Origin: Thermoplasmatota archaeon
GTDB taxonomy: Archaea; Thermoplasmatota; E2; DHVEG-1; B18-G2
Reading direction: 5' to 3'
DNA: 19,462 bases
Assembly: GCA_029259115.1 (NCBI GenBank)
Contig: JAPDJO010000007.1
Coordinates: forward strand, 1 to 19,462
This document shows positions 1-18,275 of the stretch, piece after piece. The translations under genes and the position numbers were made by a program. How positions within the stretch are numbered: the stretch's first letter is position 1; the number at the start of each line of letters is the position of its first letter. Under the pieces are notes generated by a model. The model did not search any database. It was not told the DNA's origin and was given only the letters and a program-made list of their open reading frames with translations.

Positions 1-300
1 GAGCAAAGAGAACGGAAAGAAGAAAATAAATCACATCGCTTTGAGATATTATATAGAGTGATTTTGGAATTTTGATTACGTTATCTTCCATCAAAGCTAC
101 ATCCCAATCAGATTTTTATATATTTTTTAGGAGAACTAAAATCGACGAGCAAATCAGTGTAAAGAAATCGCCATGTAAGTGCTACATTACAAACGATTCT
201 CATAGGCATTAATGATAGAACTATCCTAGCGGATTCATATCTCGGTGTGCAATCTACAATTTGGGGTGAGAAATTGTTGATAGTCTCTTAGAACTTGATA

Positions 301-314
301 GAAAAATTTATATA
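301..314 (+). promoter_or_regulatory. Archaeal BRE + TATA box upstream of hsp20
   Basis: Purine run GAAAAA (301-306) directly followed by TTTATATA (307-314), about 60 nt upstream of the hsp20 start; Shine-Dalgarno GGAGGT at 365-370. Confidence 0.7.
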
Positions 315-373
315 GAAGATCTTGTCTACTTATATTGTAGTTTGAGGTTCAATACAGTGGATGAGGAGGTGGT

Positions 374-952
374 ATGATGGTTGGAAGAAAGTATCCATTT
401 AGGAGAGACAGAGACGATTGGTTCGACGACATCTTCGATGACATCTGGTCAAGGAGATGGGGAGATATTTTCGATGAATTCGATGAATACTTCAGAGACA
501 TGAGAAGAAGGATGGACAGATTAATCAGGGATGCGATGAGCGGAAAGCTACCAGAGCCTGGAAAAGGAGGACCGTACATCTATGGATGGAGCTTCAGAAT
601 CGGACCAGATGGTAAACCAGTATTCCAGGAATTCGGAAACATTCCCCATGTGGGCACGGTAGAAATTCCAGGAAGCAGAGAACCTCTAGTTGATGTGCAG
701 GAGACAGAGGATGAGGTGCAGATAACCGCAGAGGTTCCTGGTGTGAAAAAGGAAGACATAGATCTGGAAGTTACAGGGAATACACTAATAATTAAAGTTG
801 AAGGCAAGGACAGGAAGTACTACAAGGAGGTAGAACTTCCAGCAGAAGTGGATCCAGATTCAGCCAAAGCCAGTTACAACAACGGAGTATTAGACATACA
901 GCTGAAGAAAGTAAAACCAAAAGCTAAGGGTAAGAAGATAAAGATCAAGTAA
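374..952 (+). CDS. hsp20: Archaeal small heat shock protein (Hsp20/alpha-crystallin)
   Basis: Archaeal Hsp20 pattern: GPYIYGWSFRIGPDGKP, REPLVDV, AEVPGVKKEDI, ASYNNGVLDI and C-terminal IxI motif (IKI). Start is 374 or 377. Confidence 0.95.
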   Translation: MMVGRKYPFRRDRDDWFDDIFDDIWSRRWGDIFDEFDEYFRDMRRRMDRLIRDAMSGKLPEPGKGGPYIYGWSFRIGPDGKPVFQEFGNIPHVGTVEIPGSREPLVDVQETEDEVQITAEVPGVKKEDIDLEVTGNTLIIKVEGKDRKYYKEVELPAEVDPDSAKASYNNGVLDIQLKKVKPKAKGKKIKIK

Positions 953-964
953 TCATCTCCCTAA

Positions 965-3169
<2,205 letters not shown>

Positions 3170-3170
3170 A

Positions 3171-4226
3171 TCAGGAATAGAACCTCCTCCCATCCTTTCT
3201 AACTACTAAACTTCCATAATTTCCAATAGATACATCACTCACCTCAACAAAGGGTTTCATCTCGATTTTTAATCCCTCCTCGTATCTAACTCTTACCCCT
3301 CTGCTTGATAGGGCTAAAGACTCATTTGTTCCATTATCTACAAATAATCTTAGATGAAAGGCATCCTCTATTCCAAAATTCTGATGAACCTCTGCCTCTA
3401 TATCTTTAGAGATACCGGCGCACTCCACGGGTATCCATCCATCTTTTCCAAAGCCAACATATATTTCAGCCCATGCATGAGGAGTAGCTATATACTTCCC
3501 ATTTTTCTCTTCAATCAGGTATCCTCTAACTAACCTAGATGGAATTCCCACGGCTCTGCATAGAGATATGTATAGAATCGAAAGATCATCACAATCTCCA
3601 GATTTTAGATTCAAAGTTTCCTTGGCTGATTGGGGAAGAGATTGCTGGGGATGATATACATAATTCGTGTTCTCCTTTAACCACTCGAATATACTCTTTG
3701 CCACTTCAAAAGCATTGTCAGAGATCTTTAAACTGTATGCGAGGTTCTTTATCTCTAAATCTGAGGGTTGAATCAAGGTTTTATTCTCTATGGATTGATC
3801 CCTACAATATTTCCTTTTGATATCCATACTGATGTTCTTTATATCCAGATATTTAGTAGAGTCTAAATCAACCAAGAAGGCATTAGTTTTTACAGAAACT
3901 TCAATTCCTATCTTTATGTTCTTTCTTCCATTTTCATCAAATGACCAAGTTATTATCCTGTTGCTTCCGATCTTCAAATCATTGTAAGAGTAGTTCCCTA
4001 TAACGGAGAGATTTGAAATGTATCCGTTTATGGGTTGAGGAACGAAGCATGTATAATTTACATTGAAATCACCCTTTCCACTTGAATTTATATAATAGCC
4101 ATACGATATTTTGTACTCCAGAGATATAGGCGTAGACTCATATCTTACCTCACTAATTATACTTTCAAGGCAGCCAGACATGAATAGAGAGAAAATTACC
4201 AAAATGAAAATCGCACATCTTCTCAT
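3171..4226 (-). CDS. Transglutaminase-like (Cys protease fold) domain lipoprotein
   Basis: GDCDD (Cys), RAVGIPSRLVRGY, PHAWAEIY (His), GWIPVE. Start moved from 4286 to ATG 4226 (MRRCAIFILVIFSLFMSGC: basic N-terminus, hydrophobic core, lipobox-like SGC), which overlaps the upstream stop as ATGA. Confidence 0.85.
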   Translation of the reverse strand: MRRCAIFILVIFSLFMSGCLESIISEVRYESTPISLEYKISYGYYINSSGKGDFNVNYTCFVPQPINGYISNLSVIGNYSYNDLKIGSNRIITWSFDENGRKNIKIGIEVSVKTNAFLVDLDSTKYLDIKNISMDIKRKYCRDQSIENKTLIQPSDLEIKNLAYSLKISDNAFEVAKSIFEWLKENTNYVYHPQQSLPQSAKETLNLKSGDCDDLSILYISLCRAVGIPSRLVRGYLIEEKNGKYIATPHAWAEIYVGFGKDGWIPVECAGISKDIEAEVHQNFGIEDAFHLRLFVDNGTNESLALSSRGVRVRYEEGLKIEMKPFVEVSDVSIGNYGSLVVRKDGRRFYS

Positions 4227-6037
4227 GCTATCATCTTCTTTTTTAATCTGTATCTGCATCTTTCTCTCATTGGGCATCTTATGCACTCGGGCTCCTCCTT
4301 GCAGAACTTTTCTCCTAACTTTGCTAGAGTTTGTAGATATTTAAAGGGATCCTCACCCATCTTTTTTGCCTCATTTGAAAGTATGGAAATGGTTTCATCT
4401 GGAGTGCTCGTGGATACCCATCCTAGTCTGTTTGCAACTCTATGAACAATTTCAGCTTTCTTTGGTTTTTTCTTCTCCTTTGTCTCTGTAGATGGTAAAT
4501 TACTTGGAGTTACGAGAACCATATTTTCTTTTACCTTTGCTGGCTTGTATTCAGGTATGGATTCTTCGCCAGATATTATCGCTACAGATCTACCTCCATG
4601 ATTTGTTTCTCTTATTCTTATCTCCACCATTATTGGCTTAGCAAGGCTCCCTCCTGCAACCAGAGCTACTCCTACCTGTAATCTTTGAATCTCATCAGCC
4701 GTATCAGTAGTAAGACCTTCAACAGATTGAACTATAGCTCTTAGATCGTTTGGATTCGTGACTTTGAGGATTATATGGGTGTTGCACTGGGATATAACGT
4801 TTTTATCAACCTTAGCGGGTCTTTGACTTACTACGCATAGACCCATACCAAACTTTCTACCTTCGGATGCTACTGTTCTCAATATAGGAGATGATACTGC
4901 ATTTCCGAATCCCCTCTCTGGACAGTAATTGTGAGCTTCTTCAACTATATACATGAAAGGAGGTATTATTCCAGCTTTTCTCGCATCAAACAACTCTTTA
5001 GTTAATCTCGCAACAACAATCTCCTGAATATCTGGAGGAACACCTTTTAAATTTATTATAGAGCATCTACCTTTCTTAACTATCTCTTGCGGAGATACAC
5101 CTTTGTCTGATAATATACCTGTTGAATCTAAAGCATCGAGTACGGTCATAACATTCCATTTTGCATTACTTTTAGATGCTGCTACCCTGTCTATTATATC
5201 TCTCAGCGTGTAATTCTCCTTAAACTCTTTTATTTCCTTTATGGCCTGATACAAAACACCTATCTGAGGTCCGGTCAGCTTAGCTGATAGAAGGTCGAGA
5301 ATCTCTCTAGCTTCTAGATTTAGCCCATTCAAAGTCAATCTTACAGATTTTCCTCTTTTTGGGATGGGTGAAAACTCTACTATCTGATTTGCATAGCCTT
5401 TAGGCTTTATCTTGAATCTACCCATTTGCTGCAAATCTTTCTTACTCTTGTTTGGTTCAGCCAGAGATACATACTCACCATGGGTATCAATGATAACAAC
5501 GGGAATCTTCTTCTTGAGTAATTCCTCAACTAGGACACCACATGCATAACTCTTTCCAGCCCCTGTTTTTGCCAGTATACAAACATGCTTTTGAACCAAT
5601 GTATCTATGGATAGATAAACTGGAATATCGTGACCTTTGAGTAAACCTATATATGCCCCTCCTTTCTCATCCGCATACAGTCCCAAAACATGTCTTATTA
5701 AGGATTCATCAGCTTTGTACACAGGTTGTCCTATCTCAAAAGGAGTCCTTGGAGTCTGTAGCAAACCCCTCTCATCTCTATAGCCTATGACCTCTGCCTT
5801 TGCTGACAGATCACTTTCAACGTACTTTGGAGTTTTATCCTTTCCGTAAAGAGCCTTTATACTCTCATATGAGAGGTCTGAGTATCTTTTGATATCAACA
5901 ACTTGAGCGAGAACAGAACCTTCTTTGTGATACACAGATATGTAGTCGAATCTCTGCAATGTAGGATCCTCTACTATAAAACTGAATTTCGTTGATCCAA
6001 CATCCCCGTAGATGAGGCCAGCCGGTTGTTTCTCCAT
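4223..6037 (-). CDS. HerA/FtsK-family ATPase with N-terminal HAS barrel and C-terminal EndoIII-like Cys4 module
   Basis: N-terminal beta-rich HAS-like region, Walker A AKTGAGKS, Walker B YIVEEAHNY, HerA motifs EGRKFG and SQRP, plus NPND; C-terminal extension with CKEEPECIRCPMRERC. Confidence 0.9.
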   Translation of the reverse strand: MEKQPAGLIYGDVGSTKFSFIVEDPTLQRFDYISVYHKEGSVLAQVVDIKRYSDLSYESIKALYGKDKTPKYVESDLSAKAEVIGYRDERGLLQTPRTPFEIGQPVYKADESLIRHVLGLYADEKGGAYIGLLKGHDIPVYLSIDTLVQKHVCILAKTGAGKSYACGVLVEELLKKKIPVVIIDTHGEYVSLAEPNKSKKDLQQMGRFKIKPKGYANQIVEFSPIPKRGKSVRLTLNGLNLEAREILDLLSAKLTGPQIGVLYQAIKEIKEFKENYTLRDIIDRVAASKSNAKWNVMTVLDALDSTGILSDKGVSPQEIVKKGRCSIINLKGVPPDIQEIVVARLTKELFDARKAGIIPPFMYIVEEAHNYCPERGFGNAVSSPILRTVASEGRKFGMGLCVVSQRPAKVDKNVISQCNTHIILKVTNPNDLRAIVQSVEGLTTDTADEIQRLQVGVALVAGGSLAKPIMVEIRIRETNHGGRSVAIISGEESIPEYKPAKVKENMVLVTPSNLPSTETKEKKKPKKAEIVHRVANRLGWVSTSTPDETISILSNEAKKMGEDPFKYLQTLAKLGEKFCKEEPECIRCPMRERCRYRLKKKMIA

Positions 6038-6074
6038 CTAATCGTGGTATTGAGAAGAGCTCATGTTTAAAAAT

Positions 6075-6857
6075 CTATCGCATTTTTCTATATCCAGCGA
6101 ATACCTCCAGAGCTTCTTCCTCAACAAAATGTAAATTTCCAGGAATTACTAAGGTATGGGGAGTATCTCCAAAGTCTATCCCCCTCAGGATCTTTGCAGG
6201 CGCAGCCCTTGCTATACAATCTTCTGAACCAGCTCTTGCTACACCACACATGAGCGTATCTTCTTTTATTATTCCTCCTTTGGCTTTCTCTTCCATCCCA
6301 AAAAGAAGGTCTATTCCTTCTTTTATGGTCATAAGTTTACCTTTCTCTCTGTCTATATCTAAAAGCACAAGAGTGTGTAATCCTCTGTCAAGATTTTCTT
6401 TTATGACATAGTATGGACTTAATGGGAAGTACTCATTTTCAGGATATGCTAGAGTTGTTGTTCTTCCAAACTTGTAATGCTGAAGACCTAGAATACCAGG
6501 AACAACTGTAATTACACTTACACCATTGATAACCTTGGTTTTTATCCTCCTTTTTTCAGCCTCTATCCTGAGAGAGACATGAGTTGTTGCAACCATAGGA
6601 TCTCCAACAACAAGAAAAGCAACTTTCTTTTCAAGAGCTTTTTCTATCAATATACTTCCATCTTCGACCTCTCTCCTCTCCAACACATTTATCTTTTTCC
6701 CAACCAATCTTTCTAAATCCTTTATCTCATAATCAGATGGTTTTGATGTGTAGAGTTCGCAAAAGATCACATCACATCTTCTTAAAACATTTAATGCCTT
6801 TATCGTTAAATCTCCTTTACCTAAGCCCATTCCAATGAAAATCAACTCTCCAGACAT
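6075..6857 (-). CDS. dph5: Diphthine synthase
   Basis: LIFIGMGL, ELYTS, GDPMVATTH, GLQHYKFGRTTT, GLHTLVLLDI, PHTLVIPG.LHFVE.EAL: typical Dph5 motifs. Confidence 0.96.
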   Translation of the reverse strand: MSGELIFIGMGLGKGDLTIKALNVLRRCDVIFCELYTSKPSDYEIKDLERLVGKKINVLERREVEDGSILIEKALEKKVAFLVVGDPMVATTHVSLRIEAEKRRIKTKVINGVSVITVVPGILGLQHYKFGRTTTLAYPENEYFPLSPYYVIKENLDRGLHTLVLLDIDREKGKLMTIKEGIDLLFGMEEKAKGGIIKEDTLMCGVARAGSEDCIARAAPAKILRGIDFGDTPHTLVIPGNLHFVEEEALEVFAGYRKMR

Positions 6858-6937
6858 GGTGGAAAAAAATTAGAAAATATTAATAATGGTTACTGCATAA
6901 CTAAATAAGGGCACTTGACAACTATCAGCCTTTGACC

Positions 6938-7183
6938 TTATTTTCCCTTTAAACTCTCGCTCGTGAGGAGAGTCTTTGTGTCTATAACTCCGGGTATCGC
7001 TCTTATCTTCTTTATAACGACAGACCCAACCTCATCAAAATCGTTAGCCTCTATTTTCGCTAGAATATCATACTCCCCAAACAACGGATATATCTCCTTA
7101 ACCTCATCTATGGAGGATATCCTATCAAAAACCTCCCTCTCCTTCATAGGGCTTACGCTTATCAGTACAAATCCTGTTGCCAT
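6938..7183 (-). CDS. Stand-alone Lrp/AsnC ligand-binding (RAM) domain protein
   Basis: About 81 aa from ATG 7183: MATGFVLI...LFGEYDILAKIEA...IRAIPGVIDTKTL, no HTH. ATG 7183 preferred over the ORF-track start at 7201. Confidence 0.88.
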   Translation of the reverse strand: MATGFVLISVSPMKEREVFDRISSIDEVKEIYPLFGEYDILAKIEANDFDEVGSVVIKKIRAIPGVIDTKTLLTSESLKGK

Positions 7184-7296
7184 ACTCTCAAAGAATAACA
7201 AGCAACTTATTAGATTTTTCTGTTATCCTCTTTGATTACCACATAAATTTAAGTAGGTGTATCTATTTACCAGATTCCCACCAAGGGGGAAGAAAC

Positions 7297-8106
7297 ATGG
7301 CGAAGGCAAAAGCTAGAGCTACCGCAAAAAAACTCAAGGACAAATGGAAGGCAAAAGTATGGTATAGAGTTTTGGCTCCTGCTTTATTCAATAATGTAGC
7401 TATAGCTGAGACGCCAGCCGCAGACAGAGAATTATTAATAAATAGAGTAACAGAAGTATCTCTTCAGGATCTTACCGGAGATTTCAGAAAATCGCATGTT
7501 AAGCTTTATTTTAAGATAGATAGAGTAGAGGGAACAGATGCTTACACTTATTTTATAGGCCATACTCTAACCAACGATTATGTGAGAAGACTTATCAGAA
7601 GGAGAAGATCAAGGATCGATGGAGTTTATGATGTTACAACAAAGGATGGTGCTGTTATAAGGGTTAAACCTCTGGCAACGACAGAGAGAAGGGTTCAAAC
7701 CTCACAGAAACACAAGATAAGAGAGATAATGAAGGAAGTTGTCTTCTCCTATGCAAAGGAAAGAACATTGGATGAACTCATAAAAGGTATCATAGAAGAT
7801 GAACTTCCTAACGAGATAGCAAAGAGGTGCAAGAAGTTCTATCCCCTGAGAAGAGTCGAGATATACAAAACAGAACTCATGAAGAGACCAACTACAGAGG
7901 AGAGAGCGGAAACCAAAGAGAAAAAGGAAGAGAAAGAAACTAGCGAGGAGGAAGTAGAAGAGAAAAAGGTCGAGGAGGAGAAAGAGGAGACGAAGACCAA
8001 AGAGGAACAGACAGAGAAGGAAAAAGAAGTTAATGAAGAGGTTGAGATAGAAGAGAAGAAGGCAGAGGATAAGGATAAGAAAGAGAAAGAACCAGCAGAA
8101 GAATAA
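7297..8106 (+). CDS. rps3ae: 30S ribosomal protein eS1 (S3Ae) with long E/K-rich C-terminal tail
   Basis: KDKWKAKVWY..LAP, RVTEVSLQDLTGD, GHTLTNDYVRRLIRRRRSRID, YPLRRVEIYK. Start placed at ATG 7297, downstream of a G-rich SD-like run (AAGGGGG). Confidence 0.95.
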   Translation: MAKAKARATAKKLKDKWKAKVWYRVLAPALFNNVAIAETPAADRELLINRVTEVSLQDLTGDFRKSHVKLYFKIDRVEGTDAYTYFIGHTLTNDYVRRLIRRRRSRIDGVYDVTTKDGAVIRVKPLATTERRVQTSQKHKIREIMKEVVFSYAKERTLDELIKGIIEDELPNEIAKRCKKFYPLRRVEIYKTELMKRPTTEERAETKEKKEEKETSEEEVEEKKVEEEKEETKTKEEQTEKEKEVNEEVEIEEKKAEDKDKKEKEPAEE

Positions 8107-8146
8107 ACTTAAATCTCTTCTCTCTTTACATGTTCGGGGAGTTTTA

Positions 8147-9496
8147 ATGGCTAGAAGCATAGTGATTATAGGCGGAGGAGCAGCAGGAGGTACGGCAGCT
8201 CAATTTGCAAAGAAGACAGATAGAAACGCAGAGGTTACGATCTTTGAGAAAGGAAAATATCCTCAATATTCCAAATGTGCTCTACCATATTTTATATCTG
8301 GCAAAGTCGAAGATGTCATAGAGTTTTCTGAAAAATGGTTTGAAAGAGCTGGAATAGATCTTTATCTTGAAACAGAGGTAAAAGAGGTAGATCTGAAAGA
8401 TAGAGTTGTGATAGCTGAAAAAAATGGAGAAAGCATAGAGAAAAAGTTTGATTCCCTTATAATAGCTACAGGCGCAGACCCAAGTGTACCACCTATAGAT
8501 GGTATATATGACGGTGAGAAGATCAAGAAAGGTGTTTTTTCTTTGAGGACCTTGGATGATGCCAAGGAGATTAAAAATTTTTTGAGAGAAGTCGAGGACA
8601 TCTCTATAATTGGAGCAGGATTGATAGGATTAGAGTTATCCGAAGCGTTCTATGAGTTAGGGAAGAGTGTAAAGATCATAGAGATCCTTCCGAGCATACT
8701 TCCCGGCATGATTGATCAAGATCTTGCAGAATTAGTTTATCAGAAAATAAAAGATAAGGTGGAGATATTTGTAAATCACAGGGTTAAGAAGATCAATGGC
8801 AAGGATGAGGTTGAGAGTATCGTTGTCGAGGGTAAAGATGGAGATGAGAAAGAATTTGATGCTGATATGGTTATCTTGGCTACTGGAATAAGACCTAATA
8901 CAAAAATCGCTGAAAGTATCGGATGCAAAATGGGAGAGACGAGAGGAATAGTCGTAGATAAAAGATCCATGACGTCGATAAAAGATGTCTATGCTGCTGG
9001 AGATTGTACCGAGTACAAAGATTTTGTTACAGGTAAAGCTATACCCGTAGGTCTTGGTAGTATTGGAGTGAGACAAGCTATGGTTGCTGGTGTAAACGCA
9101 GCTGGAGGAAATGCTCTGCTACCGGAAGGATTTCTACAAACAAGGACTACGCGAATATTTGATGTAGAAATATCTGCTGTCGGTCCTTTATCTAAAGAGA
9201 TAGAGAACAGTGTTCAAGGAAAATACTCAGGAAAAACCTTACCTCATTATTTCCCTGGAGGCGAAGATATTGTGATAAAGACGGTTATCAACAATTCTGG
9301 AGAGATAGTTTCTGCTCAAGCTGTAGGTGTAGGAAGCGCTTTGAGAATCAATACGTTCGCATGTGCTATCTATAACAAGATGAATGTTGAAGAGTTTGTA
9401 AAACTTGAAACAGCCTACGCTCCACCAATCGCACCAACTTTAGATCCTATGATAATATCTGCAGATATCGCAAGGTATAGGTATGGGAGGAAATGA
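8147..9496 (+). CDS. FAD-dependent pyridine nucleotide-disulfide oxidoreductase, CoA-disulfide reductase/NADH oxidase family
   Basis: FAD motif GGGAAG, single redox Cys in YSKCALPY, ATGA, NAD motif GAGLIGLE, YAAGDC, C-terminal YAPP. Confidence 0.88.
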   Translation: MARSIVIIGGGAAGGTAAQFAKKTDRNAEVTIFEKGKYPQYSKCALPYFISGKVEDVIEFSEKWFERAGIDLYLETEVKEVDLKDRVVIAEKNGESIEKKFDSLIIATGADPSVPPIDGIYDGEKIKKGVFSLRTLDDAKEIKNFLREVEDISIIGAGLIGLELSEAFYELGKSVKIIEILPSILPGMIDQDLAELVYQKIKDKVEIFVNHRVKKINGKDEVESIVVEGKDGDEKEFDADMVILATGIRPNTKIAESIGCKMGETRGIVVDKRSMTSIKDVYAAGDCTEYKDFVTGKAIPVGLGSIGVRQAMVAGVNAAGGNALLPEGFLQTRTTRIFDVEISAVGPLSKEIENSVQGKYSGKTLPHYFPGGEDIVIKTVINNSGEIVSAQAVGVGSALRINTFACAIYNKMNVEEFVKLETAYAPPIAPTLDPMIISADIARYRYGRK

Positions 9497-10622
9497 GGTA
9501 AGATTTGTACATCTTGCAGATACTCATCTCGGATACTCAGCCTATCGAAAGATAGGTAGCGATGGCATAAATCTTAGAGAAAAAGATATTTACAAAGCGT
9601 TTATCGCTGCTATTGATTACATACTGGAGAAAAAGCCTGACTTTGTTATTCACGCTGGAGATCTCTTTGACAGCGTTAGACCAACAAATAGGGCTATAAC
9701 CATAGCTCTGGAGCAACTTCTCAGATTATCTAAAGCAAGAATACCAACTATAATTATAGCAGGAAATCATGAGACACCAAAGTTGAAAGAAACGGGTCAT
9801 ATCTTCAGGCTATTTGATCATTTAGACTATATTTATCCAGTTTACAGAGGTGCAGAGAAAATAGATCTGGAAGTAGATGGAAAAAAGATATCGATACATG
9901 CTATTCCTCACTGCAGGGAGAAAGAAGATTTCTCAGAATCTTTAAAATCTGCAGCTCCAGATTCGTTATCAGATTACAACATACTAGTAACTCATGGAGC
10001 TATTCAAGCGATACAGGTATTCAAGATGAATGAGTTTAACGAGTATATAATCCCTATCTCCCTCATATCTAAAGGTTTTGATTATGTAGCTCTAGGTCAC
10101 TATCATGGGTTTACGAGAATAAAGAACAACATAGTATACTCTGGATCTACAGAGAGGATGAGTTTCTCTGAATCTAGAGAACAGAAAGGAATCGTTGATG
10201 TGAGGATTTCATCTTCCACAATCACAGATTTTATACCCCTACCAACAAGAAACATGATAGAGATAGGACCTATAGATTGTAAAGATCTCAAGCCCAGAGA
10301 AATCATTGAGAGGATAAAGGAAAAAATTGGAAATAGAGATTTTAGAGATTCTATAGTTAGACTCTCTCTGACAAATGTTGATCCTGCAATCTACAAGTCC
10401 ATAGACTTCTCTTCCATAAATAACATATTTTCAAGGGCTATGCATTTCGAGATAAGGCATTCTATAGGCAAGGAGCCTGAGCAGATAGTACCAACTGATA
10501 TAATGATAGCAGATTTGCTAACAGAATTTGAAAAATTCTTGCGAAGAGGAGATTACAAAGATAAAGATATATTGCTGGAGATCGGGAAGAGATACATACG
10601 CCAGGCGGAGGGAGAGGAGTGA
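9483..10622 (+). CDS. mre11: Mre11/SbcD metallophosphoesterase nuclease
   Basis: Motifs DTHLG, GDLFD, GNHE, TH and LGHYH, then YSGSTER; directly upstream of Rad50. Confidence 0.92.
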   Translation: MGGNEVRFVHLADTHLGYSAYRKIGSDGINLREKDIYKAFIAAIDYILEKKPDFVIHAGDLFDSVRPTNRAITIALEQLLRLSKARIPTIIIAGNHETPKLKETGHIFRLFDHLDYIYPVYRGAEKIDLEVDGKKISIHAIPHCREKEDFSESLKSAAPDSLSDYNILVTHGAIQAIQVFKMNEFNEYIIPISLISKGFDYVALGHYHGFTRIKNNIVYSGSTERMSFSESREQKGIVDVRISSSTITDFIPLPTRNMIEIGPIDCKDLKPREIIERIKEKIGNRDFRDSIVRLSLTNVDPAIYKSIDFSSINNIFSRAMHFEIRHSIGKEPEQIVPTDIMIADLLTEFEKFLRRGDYKDKDILLEIGKRYIRQAEGEE

Positions 10623-12727
10623 TACTAAAATCCATAAAGATGCAGAACTTTAGGAAATTCAAAAGCGTTGAGATAGATTTTCCAGATGGAGTCGTTGGTA
10701 TATTCGGATTAAATGGCGTTGGCAAATCTACGATATTCGAAGCTTTTGCATGGGCTCTATATGGTCATACGGCTGCAAGAACATCATCTGATAAGATAAA
10801 GAGGGATAAGGCTCTTCCAACAGATAGATGCAGAGTCGAGGTTGAATTTGTTTTCAATCAGAACAATATAAGAGTAATAAGAGAAATGATAGGAAAGAAT
10901 CTCTCCCCATCAGCTATGGCATTTGTGAATAATAGACTCGTAGCGAATGGAGCAGAAGCTACAACAAGATTTGTCCAAAATCTTTTTGGCATGGATGCGA
11001 AGACCTTTTTTACATCGATCTTTGCAAAACAAAAGGAGCTCAATGCCTTATCAGCGATGAATGCAAGTGAAAGAAAACAGCTAATCATGAGGATGCTTGG
11101 TATAGACGCGTTGGATAAAGCGATAAGGAACATAAGATCAGACATAAGAAAATCTCAGGAGATTATACAGCACTATCAGATATCACTAAAAGATGAAAAA
11201 ACCGGAAGAGATAAAGAGGAGATATTTAAGGAGGAGATTGAGAGAGACAAAGAAAAACTAAACTCTGTTGAGAAAAGGATTGATGAAAAGAAGAAACTCT
11301 TGGATGTTTTGAATATAGATTTGAAAAATCTTGAAGAAGAAAAGAATCGCATCCAGAATGTATATGAAGACATTCAGAGAAGATTGGAAGAAGAGAGAAA
11401 GAAGAAGGAACTCTTTGATAAGAAGAGGAGATTGGAAGATGAGATAGAGAAACTGAGGAAATCTGTTGAGGAAAGAAAGAAGAGTTTAGAAGAGAAAGAG
11501 AGAGAATTGAGAGAACTGCAGAGGGTTAAGGAGGATTACGATGACGTTGAAAAGAAACTGGAGGAAGCAAAGAATAGTATATCTAGCATACTTGGAGAGA
11601 TAGAAAGGGAGAAAGCAAAGATAGATGGATTCGAAAGAGAAAAGAGAAAGGCGGAGAACAAGAAGAGTAGAATAGAATCTCTAGGTCCCTCCGCCCTATG
11701 TCCGACATGTGAAAGACCTCTAGGAGAACAGTATGTTAAACTCATAGAGAAGTTTAATAGCGAGATAAAAGAAAGTGAGGAAGAAATAAGAAAGATAAAG
11801 GAAAACATCAAGATGCTAGAGGAGAAGTTGGAGAAGAGCAGGAATCTAGAAGAAGCTTTGATCAAAAAGAGGAAATATCTTTTAGATGCGAAAATGAAGT
11901 GGGAGAGGATATCCACTTTCATTCAATCTGTCAATAGAGAAATCGATAGGGAGGAGAAAGATATCGAGACAAGGAAGAGAGAAATATCTCTTATGGGGGA
12001 AGTAAAGTTTGACGGAAGTCTTTTCAAATCTTTGGAAGAGAGAGCGAGGCAGGAGTATGAGAGATATAAGGAGAGTATGGAAAGGTTAAGAAAAAAACAG
12101 ATAGAATTTGACAGAGTAAAGGAGGAAATAAAGGAAATAGAGGGAGAAGCAAATCTACTGAGGCAACATATCCAAGAGTTGAACCAGAGGATAGAAGATT
12201 TGAGAGAGATGAGGAAGAGGATGTTAGAGGAGCAGGATAAACTTTCAAAGTTAAACGTTTTGGAGAAGATAATGGGGGATTTCAGGATAGACCTAATATC
12301 GAGGATAAGACCGACATTATCAGCTTATGCATCGAGTTTATTAGAAATACTTACCGACGGAAAGTATAGCGAGATGGAGCTAAACGAGAACTATGATATA
12401 ATGATCTACGATGGAGGAACACCTTACGAAATAGGAAGATTCTCCGGAGGCGAAGAGGATCTAGCAAACCTATGCATAAGATTATCCATATCCCAAATGC
12501 TAGCTGATAGGGCTGGAGGAGAGTTTAACATGATAATACTAGATGAAATCTTTGGTTCGCAGGATGTAAATAGAAGAAGAAACATACTTAACGCCCTCAA
12601 TTCCTTGTCAAACAGATTTAGGCAAATATTCGTTATAACCCACATTGAAGAAGTAAAGCAGATGGTAAATAATGCTATAATGGTCTATGAAGCTGAAGAC
12701 GGAGCAAGCAAAGTTAAGATAGAGTGA
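10619..12727 (+). CDS. rad50: Rad50/SbcC SMC-like ATPase
   Basis: GTG start overlapping the mre11 stop (GTGA); Walker A GLNGVGKST, coiled coils, zinc hook CPTC, signature FSGGE, Walker B IILDE with D-loop FGSQD, H-loop ITH. Confidence 0.93.
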   Translation: MILKSIKMQNFRKFKSVEIDFPDGVVGIFGLNGVGKSTIFEAFAWALYGHTAARTSSDKIKRDKALPTDRCRVEVEFVFNQNNIRVIREMIGKNLSPSAMAFVNNRLVANGAEATTRFVQNLFGMDAKTFFTSIFAKQKELNALSAMNASERKQLIMRMLGIDALDKAIRNIRSDIRKSQEIIQHYQISLKDEKTGRDKEEIFKEEIERDKEKLNSVEKRIDEKKKLLDVLNIDLKNLEEEKNRIQNVYEDIQRRLEEERKKKELFDKKRRLEDEIEKLRKSVEERKKSLEEKERELRELQRVKEDYDDVEKKLEEAKNSISSILGEIEREKAKIDGFEREKRKAENKKSRIESLGPSALCPTCERPLGEQYVKLIEKFNSEIKESEEEIRKIKENIKMLEEKLEKSRNLEEALIKKRKYLLDAKMKWERISTFIQSVNREIDREEKDIETRKREISLMGEVKFDGSLFKSLEERARQEYERYKESMERLRKKQIEFDRVKEEIKEIEGEANLLRQHIQELNQRIEDLREMRKRMLEEQDKLSKLNVLEKIMGDFRIDLISRIRPTLSAYASSLLEILTDGKYSEMELNENYDIMIYDGGTPYEIGRFSGGEEDLANLCIRLSISQMLADRAGGEFNMIILDEIFGSQDVNRRRNILNALNSLSNRFRQIFVITHIEEVKQMVNNAIMVYEAEDGASKVKIE

Positions 12728-13609
12728 CTACTTTTTCCTTTTTCCTGCTTTTGACTTTTTGATTATCCTTTTCTTTATATCCTCTGCCGACTTGAACAAT
12801 CTGTCAAACAGCTCAGCGTTTGACTCGTACCACTGGCGCCATCCTTCCACTTCTTCTTTGAGTCTGTTGTTTTCTTCCTCTAGATCTTCATATAACTTGT
12901 ACAGCTTTGTGAGCCTTTCTCTCTCCTTATTGTATTCAAGCTGAAGCTTTTCGTATTTCTCCTTGTATTCTGCAAATTTCTTGTACTTGTTGAGTTCATT
13001 TAACTCTTTCTTGAGGTTATTTAACTCCTTCTCTTTTTCATTCAGTGTATTCCTCAGATTGTTTATCTCCTCCTCTAACTTTCTATTCCTTTCCTCGTAT
13101 AGATCGTGTTTTTTCTTAATCTCCTCATATTCTTTCAAAAGATTCTCTTTTTCTTGAAGTTTTTTCGAAAGCGTTTCTATTCTCTCCTTGAGATCGGTTT
13201 CTATTTCGTTTATCTTCTTTTCGTACTCCTTTATCTTATCCTCCAACTCGTTTATCCTTTTTTCCTTTTCAGCTAATTCATCCTCTTGAAGCTTATAGGC
13301 ATCCCACAGTTTGATTAACCTTTCTTTTTCCTTTTCTAGTTCCTGGCTAAACCTCTTTGCATTTTCTATAGCTTCATCTCTCTCCCTTTCTATCTTGGAT
13401 AGCCTATCTTCGAATTCTGTGATTATATCAGAGAATCTACTAATATGTTCAGCATCCAAGACCTTCTTTATCCTCTCTATCTCTTCGACTCCTTGATAAA
13501 AGGAACTTCTTATAGCTTCCAGCTGAGATGTAACCCTCTGTAAACTTTCTCTAAAAGCATCCAAATCAGTAATACTCTTAGAAACATTTGTCATCTCTTC
13601 ATCAGTCAT
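12728..13609 (-). CDS. Long coiled-coil protein of unknown function
   Basis: E/K/L-rich heptad pattern along nearly the whole length, no catalytic motif. SD-like GAGGGGG 6 nt before ATG 13609 favours that start over 13624. Confidence 0.85.
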   Translation of the reverse strand: MTDEEMTNVSKSITDLDAFRESLQRVTSQLEAIRSSFYQGVEEIERIKKVLDAEHISRFSDIITEFEDRLSKIERERDEAIENAKRFSQELEKEKERLIKLWDAYKLQEDELAEKEKRINELEDKIKEYEKKINEIETDLKERIETLSKKLQEKENLLKEYEEIKKKHDLYEERNRKLEEEINNLRNTLNEKEKELNNLKKELNELNKYKKFAEYKEKYEKLQLEYNKERERLTKLYKLYEDLEEENNRLKEEVEGWRQWYESNAELFDRLFKSAEDIKKRIIKKSKAGKRKK

Positions 13610-13659
13610 CTTAAACCCCCTCATCTAATCTTCACTTAGAAGGATTAGTTTAATAATAT

Positions 13660-14967
13660 TTAAGTATTGTGTCCCAAAACAAGGATTCTTCTCAGATTTT
13701 CCAGATTGGTTATGATGGATAAAAACACGAGGGTCAAGAATATCTGATTCATCAAAGCACCAGCCATAATTATGAACAGCCTCACATCTCTTCCAAATCT
13801 AAATTTCATCTTTTTTTCTCTTATAACCTGATCGTACTTCATCGCTGTGTAACTATTAAGTAAACTTCCTGTCAACGCGAGAAATCCAAATATCCAAACC
13901 AATGCATCTTTAAATCCTAACCAGCAGCCATACGACATCCCAAGAATAATGATGGCATCTGCATATCTGTCTAGCACAGAGTCTATCCATCTTCCATACT
14001 CGCTACTCTGGAATTTCAATCTTGCTATCTCTCCATCACATCCATCTATTATAGAAGAGATCTGAGTAAGTATGCCTGCTAAAATAAAATTCATCCATCC
14101 GCCAAGAAAGAATATAAGACCTGATAGTAGTGATAAGAGAAAACTCAATCCAGTTATTGCATTTGGAGTAACTCTGGTATTTACTAAAATCCTACTTATT
14201 CTGAGAGAAATAGGTCTATTTATGTATCTTGAGATTGGTCCATCAGTATCCTTTATTAATGATCTCAGCAACTCTTTTTCAGCAATTTCTAGAGTATTTT
14301 TATTATCCACATCGATCCAGAACCTACCCTTGATATCCAAATACCCCATTCTACCTTTTCTAGCCAATACCTTAACTCCTCCGGAGAGAGAGTCATCCCC
14401 TTGTTTTATGCTCTCTTCAATAGCATCGAATATCTTTGGAGAAAAAAGGAATATGCCACAATCTATCCCATTATAATCTTTGAGATCTTTGCCTATATCC
14501 TTTATAAGTTCTTCCTCTACTTTCACCTTGGTTGCATCCTTTAGATCAACATAATCTCTCATATCTCTATCAACAACCAAGATACCATCTTTACCTTTCA
14601 GTCCCTCTCTAGTTAATTCTTTTAGAATATCAGAATCAAAAACATGATCAGCCATTAACAGAACAAAATTATCTTTAATACGATCCCTCGCCTTAAGAAC
14701 AGATAGACCATTTCCCTTTCTCCACTCCTTGTTTTCTATATACTCTATCCTGACGTTGTATCTGCTTCCATCTCCAATCCTTTCCTTTATTTCTTTCCCT
14801 TTATAACCTACAACTATAACAAAATCCTTTATTCCTGCTTCCCTAGCTGATAGTATAACCCTTTCAATAAGAGAAAGACCAAGGAGGGGGATTAAAGGTT
14901 TTGGTAGATCTCCTGATATCTCTCTTATTCTTTTTCCTTCGCCTGCCGCTATTATTAGAGCCTTCAT
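13660..14967 (-). CDS. Bifunctional inositol-1-phosphate cytidylyltransferase / CDP-inositol:inositol-phosphate transferase (IPCT/DIPPS)
   Basis: N-terminal NTP-transferase (AAGEGKR...PKPL, GNGLS, MADH, WIDVD) fused to a CDP-alcohol phosphotransferase membrane domain (DGPISRYINR, TPN, DGCDGEIAR...G...DSVLDRYAD, GRDVR); ATGA overlap with inositol-phosphate synthase. Confidence 0.92.
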   Translation of the reverse strand: MKALIIAAGEGKRIREISGDLPKPLIPLLGLSLIERVILSAREAGIKDFVIVVGYKGKEIKERIGDGSRYNVRIEYIENKEWRKGNGLSVLKARDRIKDNFVLLMADHVFDSDILKELTREGLKGKDGILVVDRDMRDYVDLKDATKVKVEEELIKDIGKDLKDYNGIDCGIFLFSPKIFDAIEESIKQGDDSLSGGVKVLARKGRMGYLDIKGRFWIDVDNKNTLEIAEKELLRSLIKDTDGPISRYINRPISLRISRILVNTRVTPNAITGLSFLLSLLSGLIFFLGGWMNFILAGILTQISSIIDGCDGEIARLKFQSSEYGRWIDSVLDRYADAIIILGMSYGCWLGFKDALVWIFGFLALTGSLLNSYTAMKYDQVIREKKMKFRFGRDVRLFIIMAGALMNQIFLTLVFLSIITNLENLRRILVLGHNT

Positions 14968-16058
14968 CTCTCTCGCTTCCCTTGTATAAATTCTTTGACC
15001 ATATCCCTTGCTACATCATCAGGATACTGAATTGGTGGATGCTTCATAGTGTATGCAGATATAGATATCAGGGGACCACCTATGCCTCTATCAAGAGCAA
15101 GTTTGCAGCATCTTATCGCATCTATTGCAGAGCCAGCTGAGTTTGGAGAGTCTTCCACGCTTAGTCTGAGCTCCAGATTCATTGGAACGTCCCCGAATAT
15201 TCTACCCTCCATTCTCAGGAAACAAAGTTTGTTATCATTGAGCCAAGGTACATAATCTGAAGGTCCTATGTGTATATCGTTGCTTTCTAGAGGTATATCT
15301 AGAACAGACTGGACAGCCTCGGTCTTTGATATCTTCTTAGACTTTAATCTATCTCTGGCAAGCATATTCAGGAAATCTGTATTTCCTCCAACATTCAGTT
15401 GATAGGTTCTATCTATCTTTACTCCCCTGTCAACGAACAGTTTTGCCAGAGTTCTGTGTACTATGGTTGCACCTATTTGGGATTTTATATCATCTCCTAC
15501 CACGGGCAGATTCTTTTCTTCGAATCTCCTTGCAAACTCTTTGTTACTTGCTATAAACACAGGTATACAGTTCACAAATGCAACACCAGCATCGAGGCAG
15601 CAGTTCACGTAGTATCTAGTAGCTTCTTCGGAGCCAACAGGTAGGTAGTTTACAGCAATCTCTGCACCACTCTCTTTTAGAAGATCCACTATGTCAACTC
15701 CCTTTCCATTTGACACAACAAAAGTTTGATCTTCTGGATATTTACTCATGTGTGGCGCTACTCCATCGAGCACTTTACCCATCGCAACCTCAACGCCCAT
15801 CTTTGGTATATCTTTGCAAAATACCTTGGTACAATTCGGTTTTGCAAAAATAGCTTCACTCACATCCTTTCCAACCTTTCTTCTATCTATATCGACAGCT
15901 GCTACAACTTCGATATCATATGGCTTATATCCACCTATATCCCAGTGCATAAGACCTATTGCATCCTCGGGGTTTTTATCTCTGTAGTAGTAGATACCCT
16001 GAATTAGAGAGCTTGCACAGTTTCCAACACCAAATATAGCAATCTTTATCTTCCCCAC
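14964..16058 (-). CDS. ino1: myo-inositol-1-phosphate (inositol-3-phosphate) synthase
   Basis: GVGNCASSL, NYLPVGS, GDDIKSQIGAT, YQLNVGGNTDFLNM, SKKISKT, EDSPNSAG; GTG start preceded by SD GGAGGTGA. Confidence 0.96.
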   Translation of the reverse strand: MGKIKIAIFGVGNCASSLIQGIYYYRDKNPEDAIGLMHWDIGGYKPYDIEVVAAVDIDRRKVGKDVSEAIFAKPNCTKVFCKDIPKMGVEVAMGKVLDGVAPHMSKYPEDQTFVVSNGKGVDIVDLLKESGAEIAVNYLPVGSEEATRYYVNCCLDAGVAFVNCIPVFIASNKEFARRFEEKNLPVVGDDIKSQIGATIVHRTLAKLFVDRGVKIDRTYQLNVGGNTDFLNMLARDRLKSKKISKTEAVQSVLDIPLESNDIHIGPSDYVPWLNDNKLCFLRMEGRIFGDVPMNLELRLSVEDSPNSAGSAIDAIRCCKLALDRGIGGPLISISAYTMKHPPIQYPDDVARDMVKEFIQGKRER

Positions 16059-16061
16059 CGT

Positions 16062-16118
16062 ATCACCTCCCTTTGAATTTCTTTGATCCCAAGCAGGCGG
16101 AAACCCAAAGAGAGGGAT
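16062..16118 (-). promoter_or_regulatory. Leader hairpin occluding the ino1 Shine-Dalgarno
   Basis: On the minus strand CCUCUCUUUGGGUUUC (16115-16100) pairs with GAAAUUCAAAGGGAGG (16081-16066): 16 contiguous pairs including 3 G-U, with an 18-nt loop. Confidence 0.55.
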
Positions 16119-16169
16119 TTATATAGAAATATATATTAAGAAGCAAAAAAGTGAATAGAGTTTTTATAT

Positions 16170-17228
16170 TTAAAACTTTCGAAACTCTTCCAGAAGAAAG
16201 AGATTGCCTATATTTACCCTTCTAAGATATTTTTTGGCAATACTGTAGCATTCATAAACCAATCTTCTTGGAGTTACTGGCAGATCCATCATCTTGAAGT
16301 CTGGATGGAAGACCAACAGAGAGTAGGGTATGTTAGGGTTTAGTGAGGAAATAAATTTGGCTATATCTTCAACTTCTTTCTTATCTATATATCCAGGCAC
16401 AAGTAAGGTCGTTGCTGTCAGAAGATCATTTCCATCAAAATTCTCCGCTATATATTCAAAGTTTTCAAGTGTAGAATCGTTTGGTCTACCTGTTAGAGCC
16501 ATGTGAAGGTTCTTATCAAAGGCCTTGATATCAAACTTTATGATACCTCCACTTTCATAAGACATCTCTGCAGCCCTTTTAACAAGACTCCTGTTTCCTG
16601 TGCCATTCCATTCCCAGCATATCCTAACTTTTCTTTCCTCTAGAATTCTCTTGCTTGCTTCCAACAGGAAAGGCAACTGAGGCTCCGGAGTTCCACCAAA
16701 GTAACATACACAGTATGCTTTCCTGGACATTTCAACCAAATCTTCTATTTCTATCCTTTTCTTCGAATCAATCAACTTGTGTTCCCAATTCTGGCAAAAA
16801 AGACAGTTAAAAGAACATCCATATGGAAAAACCGCGAGATTATATCCTATTTCTTTACTTCCTGGACAGAACCATGAGGCACAACAATTTGTAGGTAGAG
16901 AATCATAGTATGCAGTTATTACACCTTCTAGAGTTTCTAATCTTCCACCTATATTTCTCCTCAATCCGCAGTATCCTGTTTCGCCATTTCCTATCTTGCA
17001 GTTATTCGAGCAGATTTTACACTCTATTCCTCCATTACTTCTTGGCGGTTGTTCAGGTAATCCAAATTCTCTCCTTACTTTCATATGAACCTTCTTGCAT
17101 ATCTCCAGAGACTCCTCTGGTTTGTTTCTTATACAAGACAGACACACCCCAAGAATCTTAGAAATCTCTCTGCTTATTTTTCCACATATTCTGCATTTTG
17201 CTATCCTACTTCTTTCACTACGTATCAT
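16170..17228 (-). CDS. Radical SAM protein, PFL-activase-like / AmmeMemoRadiSam-like, with Cys-rich N-terminus
   Basis: CxxxCxxC motif CSFNCLFCQN, CYFGGTPEPQ, RICWEWNG, FDIKA, TTLLVPGY, IPYSLLVFHP; extra Cys clusters CRIC..CLSC, CKICSNNC..YCG and CCASWFC. Confidence 0.88.
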   Translation of the reverse strand: MIRSERSRIAKCRICGKISREISKILGVCLSCIRNKPEESLEICKKVHMKVRREFGLPEQPPRSNGGIECKICSNNCKIGNGETGYCGLRRNIGGRLETLEGVITAYYDSLPTNCCASWFCPGSKEIGYNLAVFPYGCSFNCLFCQNWEHKLIDSKKRIEIEDLVEMSRKAYCVCYFGGTPEPQLPFLLEASKRILEERKVRICWEWNGTGNRSLVKRAAEMSYESGGIIKFDIKAFDKNLHMALTGRPNDSTLENFEYIAENFDGNDLLTATTLLVPGYIDKKEVEDIAKFISSLNPNIPYSLLVFHPDFKMMDLPVTPRRLVYECYSIAKKYLRRVNIGNLFLLEEFRKF

Positions 17229-17253
17229 GTTTCGAACTCTTAAAATAGTTCTT

Positions 17254-17392
17254 AACTGTCGGATGCCAGGGTATCCTCCTCATCATTCAGGGACTCCAAG
17301 TCCCTTGATCTGGGAGGGACCCCTACTGGCATCCCTGTGGCCTTGCGCTTGCACCTCTGATCACGAATCACAGAGGCCTTCGATACAAGGCC
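17254..17392 (-). ncRNA. Two-hairpin archaeal box H/ACA pseudouridylation guide RNA
   Basis: GC-rich island in an AT-rich intergenic region. Hairpin 1: GGCCUUG/CAAGGCC stem, internal pocket, GCCUCUG/CAGAGGU stem, K-loop UGA-UUCG-UGA, then ACA (17338-17336). Hairpin 2: GGAUGCCAG/CUGGCAUCC stem, pocket, CCUCC/GGAGG stem, K-turn-like AGA...AUGAUGA, then ACA (17259-17257). The ACA boxes lie 14 and 15 nt from the pocket tops. Confidence 0.88.
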
Positions 17393-17412
17393 AAGAAATC
17401 TATTGTTTCATC

Positions 17413-17419
17413 TAATAAA
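17413..17419 (-). promoter_or_regulatory. Putative TATA box for the H/ACA RNA
   Basis: TTTATTA on the minus strand, 21-27 nt upstream of the first paired nucleotide (17392). Confidence 0.5.
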
Positions 17420-17425
17420 TTAAAT

Positions 17426-18223
17426 TTACGGTCTAAATTTATTTATCTCATCTCTGTATCTCTCAGCAGTTTTCCTTATACCTTCTGGAGATCCCCCCTC
17501 AGCGTAGATTATGCCCCTCGATACATTTATTATCACATTCTTTCCTTCCACGCATCCATAACCCAGAGATTTTTTCAGATCTCCGCCTTGCTTGCCTATG
17601 CCTGGCACAAGCAAAATTCTATCTTTACCGATGATCTCTCTTATTTCCTTTACCTCATCTGGGTATGTTGCTCCAACCACAGCTCCGCAATTCTCTCCCC
17701 AATCTTTTATCTTCTCTGCTACAATTTGGTAAAGTTTTTTATTTCCTACTTTTAAATCCTGAATGTCTCTGGCTGAGGGATTAGAAGTTTTACAAAGTAT
17801 AAAGGTGTACCTATCCTTATAATTCAAGAAGGGCTTTACAGAATCATAACCAAGATAGGGATTCACGGTTGTAGCATCCCCCTTTAATACCTCAAATATC
17901 GCTTTTGCGTACATTCTAGCCGTATTCCCTATATCGTTTCTCTTACCGTCGATTATTACAGGTATACCATCTGGTATCATATCTAAAGTCTCCAAGATAG
18001 AGAAGAACCCTTCTTTTCCATAAGCTTCGTAGAAGGCGAGATTTAACTTGTAGCAACAAACAAAATCACATGTATTTGTTATCACTCTCTCGTTAAACTT
18101 GATTATACCATCTGGTTTTTCTCTCAAGTCCTTCGGTATTTTATCTCTATCAACATCGAGACCTACACAGAGCAAAGAATCATTTTTTGACACAGCCCTA
18201 TTTAATTTCTCTATGAATCCCAT
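17426..18223 (-). CDS. pyrF: Orotidine-5'-phosphate decarboxylase
   Basis: LCVGLD, YKLNLAFYE, catalytic DGKRNDIGNT (DxKxxDIxxT), NPYLG, KTSNPS, GAVVGAT, LVPGIGKQGG, NVSRGII. Confidence 0.96.
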   Translation of the reverse strand: MGFIEKLNRAVSKNDSLLCVGLDVDRDKIPKDLREKPDGIIKFNERVITNTCDFVCCYKLNLAFYEAYGKEGFFSILETLDMIPDGIPVIIDGKRNDIGNTARMYAKAIFEVLKGDATTVNPYLGYDSVKPFLNYKDRYTFILCKTSNPSARDIQDLKVGNKKLYQIVAEKIKDWGENCGAVVGATYPDEVKEIREIIGKDRILLVPGIGKQGGDLKKSLGYGCVEGKNVIINVSRGIIYAEGGSPEGIRKTAERYRDEINKFRP

Positions 18224-18275
18224 TGATTGTGAGAAAAACCCATCAATATTTAAGGGTTTAGAATTTACGGAAAAT

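Follow-up and report, generated by a model that had tools for sequence, protein, structure and literature searches.

Iron-sulphur (Fe-S) clusters are found in DNA motors and nucleases such as the XPD/DinG-type helicases, AddB, Dna2 and Cas4, which are the subject of a review (PMC3378879). The gene described here unites a HerA-family ATPase with a segment of the endonuclease III (EndoIII)/MutY DNA glycosylases. It lies on the reverse strand (4223..6037) of a 19,462-nucleotide stretch of DNA from an uncultured Thermoplasmatota archaeon (assembly GCA_029259115.1, contig JAPDJO010000007.1, positions 1 to 19,462), referred to below as the window, and encodes 604 amino acids (aa) plus a stop codon, an assignment supported by the open reading frame (ORF) list, a Pfam DUF87 match and full-length homologues. 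The protein is composed of three parts, all on the reverse strand: a HerA-like core (residues 1-482; 4592..6037), a linker predicted to be disordered and rich in P, K, E, S and T (residues 483-524; 4466..4591) and a C-terminal tail (residues 525-604; 4226..4465) in which sequence, fold and conservation delineate three helices, a loop with four cysteines and a basic C-terminal helix. A sequence-only reading of this DNA had proposed a HerA ATPase fused to an EndoIII-like C-terminal module, and this proposal is borne out by matches of the tail in the PDB and NCBIfam, by a profile built from related tails and by the first nine ranks of a structural comparison with VIA-align.

The tail originates from the final third of a glycosylase of the EndoIII type, comprising the helices that lie past the catalytic aspartate and the C-x6-C-x2-C-x5-C loop. 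The mutY model TIGR01084 of NCBIfam matches it over positions 140-209 (E 2.4e-5) and the nth model TIGR01083 over model positions 139-192 of 192 only. A phmmer search of 177,635 PDB sequences with the 80-aa tail retrieves residues 142-202 of EndoIII 9nzc_A (E 1.9e-6), whilst a profile of 81 tails matches ROS1 (E 2.4e-9), EndoIII (2.2e-7), MutY (2.3e-4) and NTHL1 (8.5e-3), and the matches of the tail among Atlas features are clusters with PF10576/PF00730. Modelled alone with its alignment by AlphaFold2 (AF2), the tail is predicted with a mean local confidence (pLDDT) of 92.1 and a global score (pTM) of 0.78, its three helices being followed by a loop region and, at the C-terminus, a short helix. 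When this model was compared with 48,161 PDB representative chains using VIA-align, ranks 1-9 were all occupied by Fe-S HhH-GPD glycosylases with Z-scores of 8.0-5.6, values to be read with the caution that a Z under 8 can reflect a common (helical) arrangement. These matches cover the C-terminal ~75 residues of the enzymes concerned and include NTHL1 (Z 8.0, root-mean-square deviation 2.0, 72 aa), Deinococcus radiodurans EndoIII-1 (Z 8.0), Escherichia coli EndoIII (2abk, residues 136-209 against model residues 2-77; Z 7.9), MutY (Z 7.0) and ROS1 (Z 5.6); rank 10 is OGG, and unrelated folds start at Z 4.3. This structural ranking agrees with the significant sequence matches to the same glycosylases. 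The tail is homologous to the C-terminal Fe-S segment of EndoIII/MutY, and the resemblance is beyond chance.

Within this module the putative [4Fe-4S] ligands are C579, C585, C588 and C594 (4256..4303, reverse strand), which form a C-x5-C-x2-C-x5-C motif identified by its invariance in alignments. The four cysteines show no variation in the 43 homologues of a first alignment or in any of the 81 tails, and the motif is present in 80/80 related loci from species-representative genomes and, among the best database homologues, in 119 of 120; the remaining entry is a partial record that ends within the tail. The sequence-only reading, whose quoted tail is found in the 604-aa translation, had stated that a lack of conservation of the cysteines in orthologues would count against it, and these counts show them to be conserved. 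The spacing that it reported was read correctly but proves atypical even among orthologues: 78 of the 81 tails have the canonical C-x6-C-x2-C-x5-C arrangement, and the 5-2-5 spacing is confined to three, those of the window and of its closest relatives L006 and L007. In these three of the 81 tails, and in no others, one residue between the first two cysteines has been deleted. In addition to the cysteines, 16 further columns are invariant, giving 20 in total, although identity to the window tail ranges from 94% down to 46%. Judged from these alignments, purifying selection is shown to act on the four cysteines of the module.

What was retained and what was lost can be seen by comparing the tails with the 55 closest glycosylases, defined as the 190-300-aa proteins among matches P0141-P0270, the others there being excluded by length. 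Both groups share a first helix and turn, THVHR[IV]xNRLGWV..T..PE.T, as well as a Leu/Gly ahead of the first cysteine, a Pro ahead of the second and the four cysteines themselves. The position of the glycosylase aspartate, two residues before the shared HV.R and just before THVHR (EndoIII residue 138, which we take to be the catalytic Asp), is alanine in 96% of the 81 tails. The HhH-GPD family PF00730 has no match in the window protein at E <= 1, and nothing in it corresponds to the helix-hairpin-helix (HhH) motif, the catalytic lysine or the six-helix barrel, as judged from the Pfam and NCBIfam models, the latter matching from position ~139 onward only. The absence of the catalytic aspartate and the HhH, as previously suspected, is thereby confirmed, and the tail reads as a truncated, non-catalytic derivative that has lost everything needed for base excision and is not a glycosylase. 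Beyond the fourth cysteine, the 81 tails continue for 8-30 aa (mean 18) with a mean net charge of +6.2. A short basic-Gly-hydrophobic peptide, e.g. K-K-G-L-F-[KR]-[KR], ends 56 of the 81 tails, that of the window protein not being among them, and similar basic, aromatic ends are seen in tail-less proteins of family f6 and in about six orthologues from other classes that carry a different extension. Such peptides resemble the short membrane- or partner-targeting peptides at the C-termini of other ATPases.

The core to which this module is attached is that of a HerA/FtsK-superfamily ATPase. Residues 129-348 match DUF87 (PF01935, 'Helicase HerA central domain') in Pfam at E 3.4e-37 (129.1 bits against a cut-off of 23.2), and HerA_C matches more weakly (E 1.9e-7). 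The HAS-barrel family PF09378 scores below its cut-off (E 0.1; 13.1 bits against 25.2) and is annotated on some homologues of the protein; residues 7-143 are beta-rich in the AF2 model. On the Pfam, PDB and AF2 data the core comprises a beta-rich, possibly HAS-barrel-like N-terminal region followed by a RecA-type ATPase. Walker A and Walker B motifs, in the usual sense of these names, were located in the translation. The former is AKTGAGKS (residues 156-163; 5549..5572, reverse strand), of which A156, K157, T158, G159, G161, K162 and S163 show no variation in 43 sequences, and the latter lies in MYIVEE (residues 362-367; 4937..4954, reverse strand), where IVEE (364-367, with V365, E366 and E367 specified) is invariant across the 43 homologues. 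The best 120 database homologues align with 98-100% coverage and 61-94% identity to the window protein. In a PDB sequence search the closest solved chain is a 592-aa 'DNA helicase' (9x1l, E 5.4e-38), and residues 24-465 of Sulfolobus solfataricus HerA (4d2i) match query residues 28-478 at E 1.1e-33. The best matched stretches of PDB HerA-family chains stop by query residue 488, and the tail is matched by EndoIII chains only. The window protein scores below both NCBIfam HerA equivalogs, NF040819 (160.1 bits against a cut-off of 970) and NF040937 (137.3 against 800), and because these scores fall far under the cut-offs it is a HerA-family paralogue distinct from the curated HerA of double-strand-break repair. 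By homology to solved hexamers, it is presumably a hexameric translocase on double-stranded DNA. Public records, where they give a name, call the homologues 'DUF87 domain-containing', 'ATP-binding', 'helicase HerA domain-containing', 'DNA helicase HerA-like ATPase' or 'hypothetical', and their precomputed Pfam lists are without an Fe-S or HhH-GPD family.

The two conserved parts are joined by a linker that is anything but conserved in length. The P/K/E-rich linker that had been noted between core and tail corresponds to residues 483-524, for which the full-length AF2 model gives a pLDDT below 50, with blocks of the tail at 81-90. In other tail-bearing families of the class the linker is P/A/E-rich and 150-300 aa long, and the overall span is ~45-300 aa. 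Prediction of a complex between the core (residues 1-482) and the tail gave scores of 0.19 and 0.16, against a mark of 0.32, from which nothing is concluded here. The AF2 models of the tail and of the full-length protein portray the tail as a bead on a string, an independent module tethered by ~42 aa in the window protein. A further observation concerns P0134 (309 aa), an unrelated small P-loop ATPase that bears a 47%-identical tail, including an acidic loop between the first and second cysteines (Cys1-Cys2 loop), and whose own family matches are weak (ArlH, E 0.0027; nSTAND3, 1.2e-4). This protein suggests that the EndoIII-derived module moves between ATPases.

The fusion is widespread in the class to which the window belongs. 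Among 401 sampled genomes of the phylum, with the tail counted at a profile E <= 1e-12 in a reading frame of more than 450 aa, it is borne by 4/4 genomes of the window's own family (f1) and 52/53 of f2, a family of the same order, and thus by 56 of the 57 sampled genomes of that order. Elsewhere in the class it is found in 11/19 genomes of f4 and in the single genomes of f7 (1/1) and f8 (1/1), but in 0/14 of f3 and 0/12 of f6. Outside the class the profile finds three matches only, all of them ordinary glycosylases of 212-220 aa. When 15 loci of the class were read directly, the four-cysteine tail was present in nine (five in f4, two in f5 and one each in f7 and f8) and missing from five (three in f6, two in f3), the last being cut by a contig end; because direct reading found them, tails in f4 and f5 are more frequent than the threshold count shows. 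The fusion is real and old: besides the order of the window, four other families of the class have it. A search of 1.84 billion representative proteins with the profile yielded 512 matches at E <= 0.001, of which nine reach E <= 1e-30: one is a full-length HerA fusion and eight are proteins of 93-251 aa, two of which (P0124 and P0125) proved on reading to be C-terminal fragments of such fusions. Beyond this set lie two further fusions to HerA, of 773 and 715 aa and more distantly related, and the remaining matches, among those listed, mostly have glycosylase-like lengths with the match near the C-terminus.

The ATPase core extends further than its tail. It is found in 106 of the 111 genomes of the class, including all 64 of high quality, and in 235 of the 401 phylum genomes at E <= 1e-30. 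Twenty orthologous loci from other classes (L101-L118 among them) were read, with cores 44-54% identical by tblastn (47-57% for the matches listed in the genome search), and the cysteine motif occurs in none of the 20, one of which is cut by a contig end. Fifteen of these orthologues instead carry an extension of 81-253 aa past the core, often acidic and of low complexity and then helical-looking, and ~six of the 15 end in a basic peptide; the other five have only 6-12 residues past the core. From these sequences, the C-terminus of this HerA paralogue looks like a slot for exchangeable tethered modules, filled in this class by the EndoIII piece. Among the orthologues of f3 (G001, G072, G105, G171, G409, G413, G417 and G425), the match starts at about query residues 71-82 in frames of 457-474 aa, and several have one in-frame stop (TGA, TAA or TAG) within the match; in these proteins the N-terminal barrel may be shorter, or translation may begin at another site.

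Archaeal HerA is known as the end-resection motor of the HerA-NurA system, which raises the matter of whether the window protein has such a partner. Only one DUF87 gene is encoded in the window genome (G000; 1.40 Mb, 98.7% complete), and Pfam NurA is absent from that genome at E <= 1, a result that leaves room for a divergent NurA beyond the Pfam model. Pfam NurA is found in 0/57 genomes of the window's order, in 13/14 of f3, in 8/12 of f6 and in 9/19 of f4, and in G072, G143 and G307 it adjoins a different HerA paralogue, 34% identical to the window protein. Since its genome is without Pfam NurA and since NurA elsewhere pairs with the other paralogue, the window protein is not the NurA-partnered HerA. 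The 'HerA' label of the sequence-only reading accordingly holds for the DUF87/HerA-family core, but the protein is a paralogue that falls below the HerA equivalog cut-offs and is not linked to NurA. The tail as a substitute for NurA was considered and rejected. In the window's order the tail is present in 56/57 genomes and NurA in 0/57, whilst in f3 and f6 together the tail is present in 0/26 and NurA in 21/26; however, several genomes of f4 have both and many families of the phylum have neither, and since one or two events in evolution suffice to give the pattern, the apparent complementarity carries no functional argument. In the window's order, where Mre11, Rad50 and the HerA paralogue are present, the task of NurA may fall to a divergent form of it or to some other nuclease.

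Two genes related to Mre11 and Rad50 are located 3.4 kb from herA on the forward strand of the window (9483..12727), where Pfam identifies an Mre11-like (9483-10622, 379 aa) and a Rad50-like (10619-12727, 702 aa) protein. Their NCBIfam matches (E 1.9e-37 and 1.9e-52, respectively) are both well under the equivalog cut-offs. The two genes overlap by 4 nucleotides (nt), and the Rad50 models matched by the Rad50-like protein, which have 872-895 positions, are longer than the protein itself. A functional linkage of these genes to herA by neighbourhood was rejected: they lie within the retrieved flanks of 0/80 related loci, and the proximity is not conserved. The window genome also encodes three HhH-GPD glycosylase paralogues (C2:16482-16673, C10:11669-11869 and C32:3389-3601), each of which contains an Fe-S segment, with 32-35% identity to the tail; in the C32 copy, one TAA falls within the match. 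The idea of a split glycosylase, in which the tail would complement a truncated gene in trans, was likewise discarded, the three paralogues (in frames of 239, 242 and 248 aa) having Fe-S segments of their own.

Which function could such a fusion serve? We consider it somewhat probable that the tail is a tethered, non-catalytic [4Fe-4S] adaptor that captures nucleic acid or a partner and so targets or loads the motor. The parts of this proposal differ in strength. That the module acts as a tethered adaptor and not as an enzyme is very probable. It also probably binds a [4Fe-4S] cluster, because the cysteine signature and the surrounding fold match those of cluster-bearing enzymes; the matched glycosylase PDB entries presumably hold such a cluster. 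Regarding what is captured, DNA or another nucleic acid, bound via the basic peptide, is a reasonable possibility, and a protein partner, bound via the tail-specific surface of helices 2-3, a somewhat more doubtful one, with docked auto-regulation or pure redox/iron sensing taking what remains. In the mechanism envisaged, the four retained ligands would bind a [4Fe-4S] cluster that holds the mini-domain together; if the ATPase is a hexamer, each ring would display six tails, one per subunit; and the tail, with the basic peptide past the last cysteine, would capture nucleic acid or a partner protein, thereby targeting or loading the motor. The cluster would make this capture or loading step dependent on iron and redox status. 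DNA-damage and redox sensing have been proposed for Fe-S glycosylases, and a bolder version of the proposal is that the tethered EndoIII-derived clusters sense DNA damage or the redox/iron state and gate loading or translocation, giving a redox-gated DNA scanner in a lineage without detectable NurA. We regard this version as improbable; if true, it would represent a repair or chromosome-handling pathway without a characterised counterpart.

A number of observations weigh against the adaptor proposal or against the homology on which it is built. Because the module is absent from the orthologues of two sister families (f3 and f6) and from those read in other classes, it is an accessory and not a core requirement. 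A VIA-align Z of 8 can fall within the range possible for common helical arrangements. The profile and Foldseek searches of the last ~80 aa that had been suggested as a check gave a divided answer: NCBIfam, the PDB sequence and profile searches and VIA-align support an EndoIII origin, but Foldseek of the tail against the PDB returns nothing at E <= 0.001 (its ranks 1-17 are EndoIII/MutY throughout, the best at E 0.097) and Pfam gives zero families at E <= 1 for the tail alone, its Fe-S model PF10576 included. In EndoIII/MutY the Cys1-Cys2 loop contacts DNA. The mean net charge of this loop is -0.99 in the 81 tails versus +1.72 in the 53 closest glycosylases, and its consensus in the tails is H-E-x-N-P-x, acidic or neutral; since the charge has turned, the DNA-contact role of the loop has probably been lost in the tails, and its composition argues against a straight copy of the way in which glycosylases contact DNA. 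The earlier suggestion of an EndoIII Fe-S domain on a ring translocase therefore stands as regards a non-catalytic graft on a HerA-family ring ATPase, but its analogy with a cluster that positions a DNA-binding loop is weakened. Furthermore, the residues E32, A33, M36, E38, Y43 and L44 (80-aa numbering) of helices 2-3 are invariant in the tails, at a place where the glycosylase sequences vary and contain gaps, a pattern that fits a protein-protein surface as well as DNA binding. Finally, the four cysteines could bind zinc instead.

The last points lead directly to the alternatives. The best placed of these, although unlikely in our view, is that the tail is a protein-docking module that makes no contact with DNA and recruits a partner such as a nuclease in the stead of NurA, or Mre11-Rad50. 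It would account for the helix 2-3 residues conserved in tails and not in glycosylases, for the positive charge gone from the glycosylase DNA-contact loop and for the different helical module that other classes carry in the same C-terminal slot, as would be expected of exchangeable adaptors; it would also suit genomes in which Pfam NurA is missing throughout the order (0/57) and, in the window, the Mre11 and Rad50 genes 3.4 kb off. Set against it, none of the candidate partners follows the gene in position: Mre11/Rad50 appear in none of the flanks retrieved for the 80 loci, the neighbours that are conserved (diphthine synthase and an apparently exported transglutaminase-like protein) are implausible as partners, and the helix 2-3 motif is kept within the window's order only and not in the tails of f4 and f5.

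We think it improbable that the four cysteines bind zinc and that the tail is a small structural zinc module. Four-cysteine sites can hold zinc, the loop of the window protein is one residue under the canonical spacing, and the profile of 81 tails has weak matches to the Zn-Cys region of GAL4 (E 0.11-0.9). Nevertheless, the exact EndoIII/MutY cluster signature is present in 78/81 tails, and the homology spans a whole 75-residue segment of enzymes whose structures contain a [4Fe-4S] cluster. Still less probable is an intramolecular regulator that docks on the ring or its pore and is perhaps released on oxidation of the cluster. Cluster-dependent switches exist in other proteins, and the long flexible linker would let the tail reach either face of the ring, but the present data show no docked state, a disordered linker that varies from ~45 to ~300 aa would be unusual for a precisely docked element, and the same tail is found on the unrelated ATPase P0134. 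That the tail is without function, a neighbouring nth gene having been fused to herA by a deletion and left to decay, as a truncated glycosylase piece without catalytic residues might suggest, is effectively refuted by the conservation pattern, namely 20 columns that do not vary in 81 tails, whose identity falls as low as 46%, and retention in at least six families of the class behind freely diverging linkers, together with a confident independent fold.

Returning to the locus, the immediate neighbours of herA are on the same strand and in a conserved order. Downstream is a transglutaminase-core gene (3171..4226, reverse strand; Pfam Transglut_core, E 2.2e-22), whose ATG overlaps the herA stop codon as ATGA and whose product has an N-terminal hydrophobic segment ending in a cysteine, lipoprotein-like and apparently exported. 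Upstream is a diphthine-synthase-like TP_methylase gene (6075..6857, reverse strand; Pfam TP_methylase, E 4.9e-23). The order diphthine-synthase-like gene, herA, transglutaminase-core gene recurs among the 80 related loci, the first being found in 72 and the last in 75, and is treated here as inherited synteny without visible functional logic. A spacer of 37 nt (6038-6074, reverse strand) separates herA from the diphthine-synthase-like gene, and within it an A/T-rich TTTTTAAA box ~26-33 nt upstream of the herA ATG might act as an archaeal TATA box for a transcript with a short leader. The database protein P0130 (506 aa) reads as a partial tail that continues into the downstream transglutaminase gene, probably an artefact of gene calling or of a frameshift.

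As far as the searches show, the domain combination is new: a known HerA-family ATPase with a new accessory domain, widely conserved. The sequence-only reading had found the architecture unfamiliar among characterised HerA proteins, and full-text literature searches, whose scope did not include the comparative-genomics paper of 2004 on the FtsK-HerA superfamily, likewise turned up no description of a HerA-EndoIII/Fe-S fusion. Much work exists on HerA-family rings and on Fe-S glycosylases alike; a glycosylase cut down to its cluster-binding third and reused as an accessory tethered to a DNA motor is, within the same searches, undescribed. The ~75-residue module offers a natural minimal system in which to ask what the EndoIII/MutY cluster does beyond catalysis, whether its role is structural, DNA-contacting or redox-active. 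Moreover, the fusion is the sole HerA-type ATPase found in genomes that have Mre11-Rad50 and no recognisable NurA, and its partners could reveal how DNA is resected or moved in these widespread sediment archaea. Naming the tail would also improve the annotation of hundreds of species-level genomes.

In comparison with described systems, the window protein resembles archaeal HerA (S. solfataricus, 4d2i) in its DUF87 core, Walker A and B motifs and beta-rich N-terminal region. It is unlike the archaeal HerA-NurA motor in possessing a linker and an Fe-S tail and in residing in a genome without Pfam NurA. With its orthologues in other classes of Thermoplasmatota it shares the core of the same HerA paralogue, whereas their C-termini, in the 20 loci read, are without the cysteine motif. 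In relation to EndoIII, MutY, NTHL1 and ROS1, the last ~75 residues of the tail are alike in the order of the helices, the RLGW-type motif, the C-x6-C-x2-C-x5-C signature and the fold; in contrast to those enzymes, only the C-terminal third is present in the window protein, and the HhH barrel, the lysine, the aspartate and the basic Cys1-Cys2 loop are gone. With XPD/DinG, AddB, Dna2 and Cas4 it has in common the concept of a DNA-processing ATPase combined with a four-cysteine cluster domain. The cluster domains of those proteins have other folds and are built into the body of the helicase or nuclease, whereas the module of the window protein is derived from EndoIII and, as the models depict it, hangs by a disordered tether from a RecA-type ring ATPase.

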